Positions 53,652 to 55,045 are shown, counted from the stretch's first letter. The stretch is 64,000 nucleotides of DNA from Escherichia coli 042 (GCF_000027125.1 NC_017626.1); one strand, 5' to 3'. The notes: generated by a model from the letters alone, not told the origin. Translations and numbers: made by a program.

Positions 53652-54212
53652 ATGATAATTAACATCCTTTTTAGATTGCTGCTTACATTCAATGCCACTT
53701 CTTTGTTGATAATTATATTTTTGGTGCAAAGGAAATATACGTTGTTTTACTTTTTTCAGCATGAACAGAGTTTACAGTGGTTAAGTGGTATTCCTCAGGT
53801 AGGGTCGTATCTTTTTTATTTTTTAATACCTGTTGTTTTGACTAAAGTCAGTCTTGTGCTTAGTGCTGCGCTGGGAAAAGATGAGTTTAAAAAAGGTGAG
53901 GTGATTTCAGTTGAGCATGCGAATAACTCTTTTTTACCGAGTTATCTGGGGTACTTTTTTGTTGCCCTGAGTATAAATAACTGGGGGGCGTTGTTCTTTG
54001 TTTATGGAGTGCTGTTTATTTTTACATTTTTATCTCAGGCCTTATATTTCAATCCTTTGTTTCTTGTTTTCAGGTATGAGTTTTATAATATTAAGACAAA
54101 AACAGGAGCGTCGATTTTTCTTATCAGTCCTTATAGGTATAAAGTACCGCAAGATATTGTAGTGCCCATGGCTTTCAGGATTAATAACTATACCTTTATC
54201 GAAAGGAAATAA
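53652..54212 (+). CDS. Low-GC polytopic membrane protein (4-5 predicted TM helices)
   Basis: 186 aa, very hydrophobic; stop 2 bp before next gene. Confidence 0.5.
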   Translation: MIINILFRLLLTFNATSLLIIIFLVQRKYTLFYFFQHEQSLQWLSGIPQVGSYLFYFLIPVVLTKVSLVLSAALGKDEFKKGEVISVEHANNSFLPSYLGYFFVALSINNWGALFFVYGVLFIFTFLSQALYFNPLFLVFRYEFYNIKTKTGASIFLISPYRYKVPQDIVVPMAFRINNYTFIERK

Positions 54213-54214
54213 GA

Positions 54215-55045
54215 ATGGATAATGTATTTGTTAAAGCAAAAGGTCTCAGGAAAAAACCATATTTTAAGATTGTCTCAGATCATACCCTTTTTGAAAGGGT
54301 TGATCTGTCAGTGTGTTCATTGGTTCCGTATGCACCGGATCATAATCTTGATGAAGATTCCTGGTTTAGTCTCAGTGAATTTAGTAAACGGGAATACTGC
54401 CCATCCTTTTTGAAAGATGAGTTTGATTCAAAAAATTATGATGAATTGCCTAAAAAATATTTTTCAAAGATAGCATTTATTTTTTCATTTCAAAGTGGTG
54501 ACTTTTATTTTCAGAAGGTAACACCATCATTATATCTCAAGAAAAAAATGATCGAACTTGGTGATAGAGCAAAGATAGAGAGCGGGAAGAATCGTCTGGT
54601 TGTTAACCAGACCCCGGATGCAGTATATCTTGCTGCAAAAGACACGCTTATATTTAAATCCTTGTCAGCCATTTCTTCCATGTTTAATGGTATCGATACT
54701 CTTTATAAAGAGGCAACAGAACAGGATGTTGAACAGTTTCTGGGGGAGTCGTTTATTGCTCTCTCTGGTGAATATAAAGCATGTAATGTTTCAAAACCAA
54801 ACAGAAAAAGAATAGCGTTAGCGATGGATACGTTAAACCAAATGGATGTAAGTGACAGGGGGAATATGCTAACTTATATAAATGATTATTGCTCTGAAAA
54901 ATTAAAGTTTGATGATGGCACTGGCTGTTTCGAAATTTCTTGTGACGAAGAGCTTAAACTTTTGCTGTATGGTATCGAAGAGAGATATTACACAACTCGA
55001 TTTGGTAATGAAAAAAGGTTGGCCAACTCGATACAAAAATTATGA
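54215..55045 (+). CDS. Low-GC hypothetical soluble protein, operon partner of the membrane protein
   Basis: 276 aa; tightly coupled to upstream gene; no recognised motif. Confidence 0.5.
   Translation: MDNVFVKAKGLRKKPYFKIVSDHTLFERVDLSVCSLVPYAPDHNLDEDSWFSLSEFSKREYCPSFLKDEFDSKNYDELPKKYFSKIAFIFSFQSGDFYFQKVTPSLYLKKKMIELGDRAKIESGKNRLVVNQTPDAVYLAAKDTLIFKSLSAISSMFNGIDTLYKEATEQDVEQFLGESFIALSGEYKACNVSKPNRKRIALAMDTLNQMDVSDRGNMLTYINDYCSEKLKFDDGTGCFEISCDEELKLLLYGIEERYYTTRFGNEKRLANSIQKL

Follow-up and report, generated by a model that had tools for sequence, protein, structure and literature searches.

Two adjacent genes in the stretch of Escherichia coli 042 DNA analysed here (64,000 nucleotides, hereafter the window) most probably form a divergent Kiwa-family module directed against phages and plasmids, with a kwaA-like gene (ORF1) followed by a kwaB-like gene (ORF2); we put the probability of this reading at about 0.8. 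It adds a divergent member to a defence family already known, and no new kind of system is involved. A first-pass annotation, made from the sequence alone, had proposed a defence role, and the matches of the two proteins to PADLOC KwaA and KwaB models, the predicted fold of ORF2, and the restriction-modification (R-M) and mobile context of the genes all bear this out. It had also singled out Kiwa for comparison, which was the right choice, but had offered it as an architectural analogy only, and the PADLOC matches and the ORF2 fold point instead to remote homology. As this is homology and not mere analogy, its description of the pair as a 'candidate undescribed system' is too strong. What we find is a divergent branch of Kiwa, a system that is already described and mechanistically studied, and RefSeq already uses the name 'KwaA family protein'.

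In canonical Kiwa, KwaA is a tetramer of the inner membrane whose cytosolic beta-barrel, built from the loop between transmembrane segments (TM) 2 and 3 together with the C-terminal tail, carries KwaB dimers (PMC11785009). The KwaA tetramer is hourglass-shaped, has a central pore and was likened by the authors to an ion channel (PMC11785009). [quoted passage not shown] The cell is not killed, viability is kept at high multiplicity of infection (MOI), and the system is active alone when cloned (PMC11785009).

The locus and its cargo slot

ORF1 and ORF2 lie on the same strand, with two bases between the stop of the first and the start of the second (Table 1). Their GC contents are 0.339 and 0.350, compared with 0.499 for the whole window; in 500-bp sliding windows GC is 0.32-0.38 over positions 53250-55250 and 0.50-0.57 on both sides, and it averages 0.345 across 53438-55085. 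Thus, the first-pass annotation was accurate in placing an AT-rich pair, 2 bp apart, at these positions (GC 34-35%, with flanks at 50-57%), and also in naming the neighbours, a type VI secretion (T6SS) accessory gene upstream, here of TssA/VasL type, and an IbrA/IbrB-like pair downstream, as seen from domain matches and RefSeq annotation. The layout that it described, a small multi-TM protein and a soluble one encoded close together in an AT-rich operon, is likewise what hydropathy (four TM segments in ORF1) and GC indicate, and the replaceable slot described below places this operon in a variable island.

Table 1. Features of the kwaA-like/kwaB-like locus, in positions of the window
Feature	Position	Strand or location	Basis or remark
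TssA/ImpA_N + VasL-type ORF, decayed	52070-53437	upstream of pair	domain match and RefSeq annotation
Low-GC replaceable cassette	53369-55127		blastn of 53000-55400 against strain 124611
Intergenic region 5' of pair, 214 bp	53438-53651	+	pair's own promoter presumed here
ORF1, kwaA-like gene	53652-54212	+	ATG start, 186 aa
ORF2, kwaB-like gene	54215-55045	+	ATG start, 276 aa
PAPS-reductase (IbrA-like) gene	55086-56318	downstream of pair	
IbrB-like ParB-domain gene	56303-56947	downstream, after PAPS-reductase gene	

Both ORFs are real genes and not chance reading frames, because the homologs of each form about 1,530 clusters at 90% identity and their dN/dS values are about 0.06 and 0.14. The two families are nearly equal in size (1,528 clusters for ORF1 and 1,531 for ORF2). 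With an E. coli allele of 92.5% identity as the reference, we obtained dN/dS values of 0.059 (ORF1) and 0.144 (ORF2), comparable to the 0.080 of the IbrB-like neighbour, and both genes of the pair are under purifying selection. In the strain used for this comparison, the PAPS-reductase and TssA-like neighbours are pseudogenes and the pair is intact. A scan of the intergenic region 5' of the pair for promoter consensus sequences returned 6 sites, with 6.3 expected from shuffled sequence, and hence no excess. A weak terminator-like hairpin lies at 53468-53490, after the upstream TssA/VasL gene, and the same type of scan found no terminator-like site downstream of ORF2 as far as the gene that follows.

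The DNA of the window is identical or nearly so to chromosomes of the E. coli 55989 type. We found the window allele in 26 of 5,426 complete E. coli genomes, where it is always chromosomal and always occupies the interval between the VasL-domain and PAPS-reductase genes. This site is situated between two T6SS gene clusters; genes for a GIY-YIG nuclease, a NERD+UvrD helicase and a PerC-family regulator, as well as IS remnants, are found in the same stretch. A member of the family in any form is present in 109 of the 5,426 genomes, including two further lineages whose DNA is 65-68% identical; among the 45 of these 109 carriers that were listed, we found no strain used in the Kiwa study.

Comparison with strain 124611 by blastn delimits the cassette: on the left, homology (92%) runs as far as 53368, and on the right it begins again at 55128 (99%). 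Besides both genes and the 214 bp of intergenic DNA upstream of them, the segment between these points takes in ~70 nt from the 3' end of the TssA/VasL ORF and ~42 nt from the 5' end of the PAPS-reductase gene. Between the same flanks, strains such as 124611 carry 0.99 kb of unrelated low-GC DNA that encodes a 214-aa protein, for which we obtained no PADLOC or PHROG match. In RefSeq, both genes of the pair are 'hypothetical protein' in most records, and ORF2 and its homologs are called 'ATP F0F1 synthase synthase' in older ones. For annotation, then, a mislabelled pair in the well-studied E. coli 55989-type EAEC lineage is now assigned to a defence family whose mechanism is understood.

Relationship to KwaA and KwaB

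Hydropathy and profile comparisons show ORF1 to be a predicted four-TM protein related to KwaA. A 19-residue Kyte-Doolittle scan, a heuristic method, places hydrophobic segments at about residues 5-27, 50-72, 96-117 and 118-140, leaving a charged TM2-TM3 loop (~73-95) and a basic C-terminal tail of 45 residues; the basic character of loop and tail fits a cytosolic location. Six PADLOC KwaA models match ORF1, the best being PDLC00221 (E=3e-10); in the alignment with PDLC00216 (E=7e-10), residues 4-184 correspond to positions 3-170 of the 173 in the profile. The Pfam family PF28043, 'KwaA', is precomputed on many ORF1 homologs (65-72% identity) and was seen as a weak match in three neighbourhood look-ups. 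ORF1 itself (WP_000586175.1) is named 'KwaA family protein' in one RefSeq record of the locus, and its homologs bear the same name in three RefSeq records of divergent E. coli lineages. The NCBIfam equivalog NF041622 gave no match to ORF1 at E<=0.1, and Pfam-A scans with ORF1 and with an ORF1 alignment gave nothing significant, the library scanned probably being one without PF28043. Global alignment of ORF1 with a canonical E. coli KwaA is collinear at ~20% identity, and the two have motifs in common in the TM2-TM3 loop (ICL1; EVISVEHAN in ORF1, EITKIEKIN in KwaA), in TM4 (LYFNP/FYANP) and in the tail (IFLIS/IILIT). Conservation is higher in ORF1 than in ORF2 (for ORF1, 65-97% identity among the homologs listed and the lower dN/dS of 0.059), and near the C-terminus of ORF1 Y180-T-F182 is invariant. 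Y180 and F182 sit at positions similar to those of the canonical KwaA interface residues Y181 and F183, a residue equivalence that is only putative.

ORF2 has no hydrophobic segment (maximum 19-residue Kyte-Doolittle score 1.0). It is matched by four PADLOC KwaB models (PDLC00222, 00225, 00229 and 00234), the best of which, PDLC00222, reaches E=2.4e-12 and aligns ORF2 residues 36-273 with profile positions 46-288 of 292. When we took ten divergent relatives (29-50% identical to ORF2), all ten matched the same KwaB models, with E values from 1e-9 to 1e-22; at the level of profile comparison, the PADLOC matches are a property of the family and not chance on one sequence. Other libraries gave a different picture. 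ORF2, like ORF1, had no significant match in Pfam-A or NCBIfam. ORF2 had no match to Pfam PF16162 (KwaB, formerly DUF4868) even at E<=10, and only 8 of 134 members of its family reached this model at E<=0.001, the best at 9.7e-7. None of the 240 ORF2 homologs listed has a precomputed Pfam match, and ORF2 did not match the NCBIfam equivalog NF041623 (anti-phage protein KwaB).

A first AlphaFold2 model of ORF2, made from a shallow alignment, had a pLDDT of 73.5 and a TM score of only ~0.4 to KwaB, and was replaced by a second model, made from 134 diverse family members, with a pLDDT of 95.5 and a pTM of 0.81. When this model was compared to the PDB by Foldseek, six KwaB chains came out on top (from 9mrx_D, 9mtn and 9nyu), aligned over the whole chain with E values of 2.6e-8 to 5.9e-7 and TM scores of 0.65-0.69; the next match had E=0.59. 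From the model and this ranking, ORF2 is predicted to adopt the complete two-domain KwaB fold, with an N-domain at ~1-150, Rossmann-like in KwaB, and a helical C-domain at ~150-276 that corresponds to the DUF4868/KwaB domain. A conserved basic motif, K194-P-N-R-K-R199, stands at the start of a C-domain helix and is a candidate DNA contact. Identity between ORF2 and crystallised KwaB is ~10%, a level at which DNA-binding and interface residues are not mappable from one to the other.

The family to which ORF2 belongs is both large and uniform. Clustered at 50% identity it has 650 representatives (E<=0.001), of which 217 have E<=1e-30, and nearly all of them are ~275 aa long, compared with 315-327 aa for canonical KwaB; we refer to this clade as the short type. 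Attempts to bridge the distance to canonical Kiwa by sequence failed. PDB sequence searches, with each ORF alone and with the family profiles, found no Kiwa chain, only noise at E ~1; with hhalign, the family profiles aligned to single canonical sequences at probabilities of 0.2% (KwaB) and 5% (KwaA), neither of them significant; blastp against canonical KwaA and KwaB gave nothing, and hmmsearch was negative or marginal. A bridging search begun from P0349, the most PADLOC KwaB-like member of the family, stayed within the same Pfam-less clade. The failed bridging and the large, uniform ORF2 family therefore mark the pair as a distinct, remote branch of the Kiwa superfamily.

As a canonical reference, we used the RefSeq-annotated kwaA/kwaB operon of E. 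coli FORC_031. Its KwaA scores 224.5 bits on NF041622 (cut-off 100) and its KwaB 342 bits on NF041623 (cut-off 200), and the latter matches crystallised KwaB at E=2.5e-36. The same island carries a short-type pair 3.5 kb from the canonical Kiwa; there, the short-type KwaA scores 25.4 bits on NF041622 (cut-off 100), and the short-type KwaB has no score on NF041623. Because the two types co-reside 3.5 kb apart in some genomes, they are probably not functionally equivalent.

Canonical Kiwa (E. coli O55:H7 RM12579, ECOR8/12/49, D9, Ralstonia; PMC11785009; PDB 9mrx, 9mtn, 9nyu, 9o0i) is the closest known system. The window pair differs from it in its KwaB, which at 276 aa is ~40-50 residues shorter than the canonical protein, and in lying beyond the reach of NF041622, NF041623 and PF16162; in addition, more than half of the short-type representative loci are joined to type I R-M operons. 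The nearest sequence profiles are the PADLOC subfamilies already named, KwaB PDLC00222/00225/00229/00234 and KwaA PDLC00221/00216, whose alignments span almost all of both proteins and of the ten divergent ORF2 relatives. The E values obtained by the short clade on these profiles are only 1e-9 to 1e-22, weaker than members of the seed sets would give. Because they fall well short of that level, profile scores place the short clade as a sister of the PADLOC subfamilies, probably outside their seed alignments. A large Kiwa-like clade that spans phyla sits below the Pfam and NCBIfam models of routine annotation, and surveys that use those models undercount Kiwa-type systems.

Co-occurrence, mobility and the association with hsd operons

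We examined the flanks of 80 loci encoding ORF2 relatives, one genome per species, with an HMM of the ORF1 family. They represent Enterobacterales, Vibrionales, Pseudomonadales, Alteromonadales, Burkholderiales, Desulfobacterota, Bacteroidota and Firmicutes. A KwaA-like ORF immediately precedes the KwaB-like gene, in the same orientation, at 79 of the 80 loci, and most of the gaps measure -4 to +6 bp; the remaining locus is on a contig of 2 kb, at whose edge the KwaB-like gene starts (base 44). Five further loci have the same kwaA-kwaB layout, including one in a Marinobacter genome in which the upstream ORF had not been called as a gene. That the genes co-occur in nearly every representative locus favours a defence module, as does the outcome of our searches for homology to a housekeeping pair, which found none.

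The pair behaves as horizontally moved cargo, because it is AT-rich relative to its flanks, occupies a replaceable slot in E. coli, and elsewhere adjoins hsd operons and integrase genes. Its GC content is below that of the flanks in 76 of 77 loci (medians 0.37 and 0.43). ORF2 relatives occur on 22 plasmid records, all at <60% identity (best 49%) and all predicted to be non-mobilizable, and a search of a phage collection found no ORF2 relative. Across the loci, other neighbours of the pair include integrases and RT-like genes.

Type I R-M genes are frequent companions of the pair. In 43 of the 80 representative loci, hsdM, hsdS or hsdR, identified with NCBIfam models, lies within 4 kb, and in 33 of those 43 the nearest upstream hsd ORF ends <=150 bp from kwaA, and the frames often overlap. 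Most loci are arranged as hsdM-hsdS-kwaA-kwaB, and their frames overlap or nearly abut; in Enterobacterales the arrangement is hsdR-kwaA-kwaB followed by an integrase gene. In the two further E. coli lineages mentioned above, the pair stands at the 3' end of the hsd operon, namely in E. coli SMS-3-5, where the annotated coordinates of hsdR and kwaA overlap by one base, and in E. coli 2022CK-00450, where it is beside tRNA-Leu and an integrase gene. A Verrucomicrobiae MAG has the same R-M gene order as the hsd-linked E. coli pairs. No R-M gene adjoins the window copy, which occupies its variable slot as a solo cassette.

Type I R-M (hsd) operons can harbour other defence genes, as the prr locus does with the PrrC anticodon nuclease. 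Like PrrC, the pair is often an extra cassette placed after hsdS or hsdR, with reading frames that often overlap. Unlike PrrC, to which it has no relationship in sequence or fold, the pair is found away from R-M genes in its window copy. Literature searches for short Kiwa, for Kiwa with type I R-M, and for the accessions returned nothing relevant.

Proposed mechanism and competing explanations

The fold of ORF2, the topology of ORF1 and the obligate linkage of the genes come from the analyses above; for the window pair, we infer the complex, its trigger, DNA binding and the phenotype from canonical Kiwa; our literature search found no phage test of any member of the clade. By this analogy, tetramers of ORF1 in the inner membrane would carry ORF2 dimers on a beta-barrel formed from the TM2-TM3 loop and the C-terminal tail. 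[quoted passage not shown] The infected cell would be expected to survive, that is, the response would be non-abortive.

A further step would be to regard the short clade, which curated annotation does not see, as a 'short Kiwa' subtype with a function of its own, one that arose in partnership with type I R-M and couples a membrane sensor of DNA entry to restriction. We offer this only tentatively. If true, it would explain both the attachment to hsd operons in about half of the genomes and the co-existence with canonical Kiwa. In either case, this attachment and the co-residence raise the questions of whether the subtypes differ in trigger or target and whether the short type cooperates with restriction. 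The hsd association also makes a stronger version the most interesting alternative to our reading, namely that the pair is an accessory of type I R-M and not a stand-alone system, either holding or slowing incoming DNA for Hsd or coupling its entry to restriction. The solo copy of E. coli 55989 would then be an orphan with a reduced or different function. The 43 of 80 hsd-linked loci, 33 of them with an hsd ORF ending <=150 bp from kwaA, speak for such a dependence, as do the one-base hsdR/kwaA overlap of SMS-3-5 and the same gene order in 2022CK-00450 and the Verrucomicrobiae MAG. Yet the other 37 loci, and the 26 E. coli genomes that carry the window allele, have no adjacent R-M genes, and the pair is nonetheless intact and under purifying selection. 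Moreover, hsd operons are common carriers of unrelated defence genes, and dependence does not follow from adjacency alone. Canonical Kiwa works alone when cloned (PMC11785009). We consider an accessory role of this kind unlikely.

Two other explanations depart further from a Kiwa-family module of the canonical kind. In one, the Kiwa fold serves an abortive response, with a channel formed by the KwaA-like tetramer collapsing the membrane potential and ORF2 acting as its regulator. The central pore of the canonical KwaA tetramer (PMC11785009) would suit such a role, as would the better conservation of ORF1 relative to ORF2 and the lack in ORF2 of ~40-50 residues of canonical KwaB. We nevertheless find this very improbable: canonical Kiwa keeps cells viable at high MOI (PMC11785009), ORF2 keeps both KwaB domains, including the strongly conserved basic motif of the C-domain, and no computed result points to toxicity. 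Lower still in our estimation is a membrane module outside defence, for envelope stress, housekeeping or as cargo of a T6SS island, that merely shares an ancient Kiwa fold. Its location between two T6SS clusters could suggest a T6SS role, the defence role of the clade is a prediction from sequence and genomic context, and homologs of ORF2 bear the legacy name 'ATP F0F1 synthase synthase'. However, that name had no support in any search, NCBIfam and Pfam gave no match to a transporter or enzyme family, and the T6SS location is limited to one E. coli lineage, where the slot is swappable. We rejected the readings as a housekeeping transporter or enzyme and as a T6SS accessory on distribution and homology together. 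The family is patchy across phyla and carried by only 109 of 5,426 E. coli genomes, the pair is poorer in GC than its flanks at 76 of 77 loci, and its neighbours are R-M, integrase and RT-like genes.

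Attachment of the short-type pair to restriction-modification operons

Among the 80 species-representative loci that carry ORF2 relatives (L008-L087), we found the short kwaA-kwaB pair joined to type I restriction-modification operons in 43, for example at L017:621-4834 and in L020 and L049. Two more E. coli lineages, SMS-3-5 (L088:1341-9238) and 2022CK-00450 (L089:1056-8394), have the same hsd attachment. In these operons kwaA-kwaB follows either hsdM-hsdS or hsdM-hsdS-hsdR, frequently with frames that overlap, and we did not find this arrangement described in the literature searched.

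In six of the species-representative loci (L017, L020, L021, L028, L037 and L048), a large gene lies directly 3' of the short pair. Its size and profile matches were taken from the L020 copy only, which encodes 1,073 aa and shows weak similarity to reverse transcriptases (retron St85 RT, E=1e-8; Drt3a, E=4e-6), both matches falling far under the curated cut-offs. The gene may be a defence-associated reverse transcriptase of an hsd-Kiwa-RT island.

Canonical relatives and database names

E. coli FORC_031 carries both a canonical Kiwa operon, which passes the NCBI equivalog models, and a short-type pair. The two lie 3.5 kb apart in one island, suggesting that the canonical and short types are not redundant. 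E. coli SMS-3-5 has the short pair and, of canonical kwaB, only a 121-aa fragment (L088:15531-15896) beside IS elements.

Many proteins of the ORF2 family are named 'ATP F0F1 synthase synthase' in public databases, with carriers of the name in Vibrio, Shewanella, Proteus, Yersinia, Blautia and E. coli. As none of the searches made supported a link to ATP synthase, the name looks like a propagated misannotation.

The chromosomal slot and its neighbours

In E. coli 124611, the slot equivalent to window 53369-55127 has the same flanks, a VasL-domain gene and a PAPS-reductase gene, and holds a different low-GC (0.34) cargo. Its only gene, which had no match in PADLOC or PHROG, could be another unrecognised defence gene at this swap site.

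Features at the slot, around the pair and in related loci
Feature	Position	Strand	Description
WP_024181942.1	within L007:7298-8291 (E. coli 124611)		hypothetical protein, 214 aa, sole gene of cargo
NERD + UvrD-type helicase	window 49858-51645	+	595 aa; PADLOC candidate-system model C3a187, E=9e-140, full length
'T6SS accessory gene'	window 52070-53437	+	single continuous ORF, 455 aa
IbrA-like PAPS-reductase + IbrB-like ParB-domain pair	window 55086-56947	+	
Two hypothetical genes	window 57316-57960 and 58026-58349		overlapped by low-GC stretch 57500-58500
Two Kiwa-type loci of FORC_031	L090:7770-9365 and L090:12875-14271		
Large gene after short pair	L017:4847-6705; L020:4847-8068		

Upstream of the Kiwa-like pair, the C3a187-matching helicase (named '3'-5' exonuclease' in RefSeq, with weak matches to GajB models) is preceded by a GIY-YIG nuclease gene, and thus this stretch also looks like defence cargo. 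The ORF that the first-pass annotation called a T6SS accessory gene reaches 81 bits on the TssA model against a cut-off of 230 bits. RefSeq splits it, annotating an ImpA_N pseudogene, a POTRA fragment and a short CDS with the VasL domain. Rather than a working T6SS gene, this ORF is probably the remnant of a decayed one.

Between the Kiwa-like pair and the IbrA/IbrB-like pair, no terminator-like site was seen. Up to 2,351 of the 5,426 E. coli genomes carry the latter pair, which often has multiple copies and at times lies on plasmids. Its strong matches to phage protein families (phrog_2302, E=3e-82; phrog_2159, E=9e-85) mark it as itself mobile, phage-associated cargo. Further low-GC stretches (0.33-0.42) follow at 57500-58500 and 60750-64000. 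The two hypothetical genes overlapped by the former had no match in PADLOC, NCBIfam or PHROG, and this stretch adjoins integrase and IS remnants.
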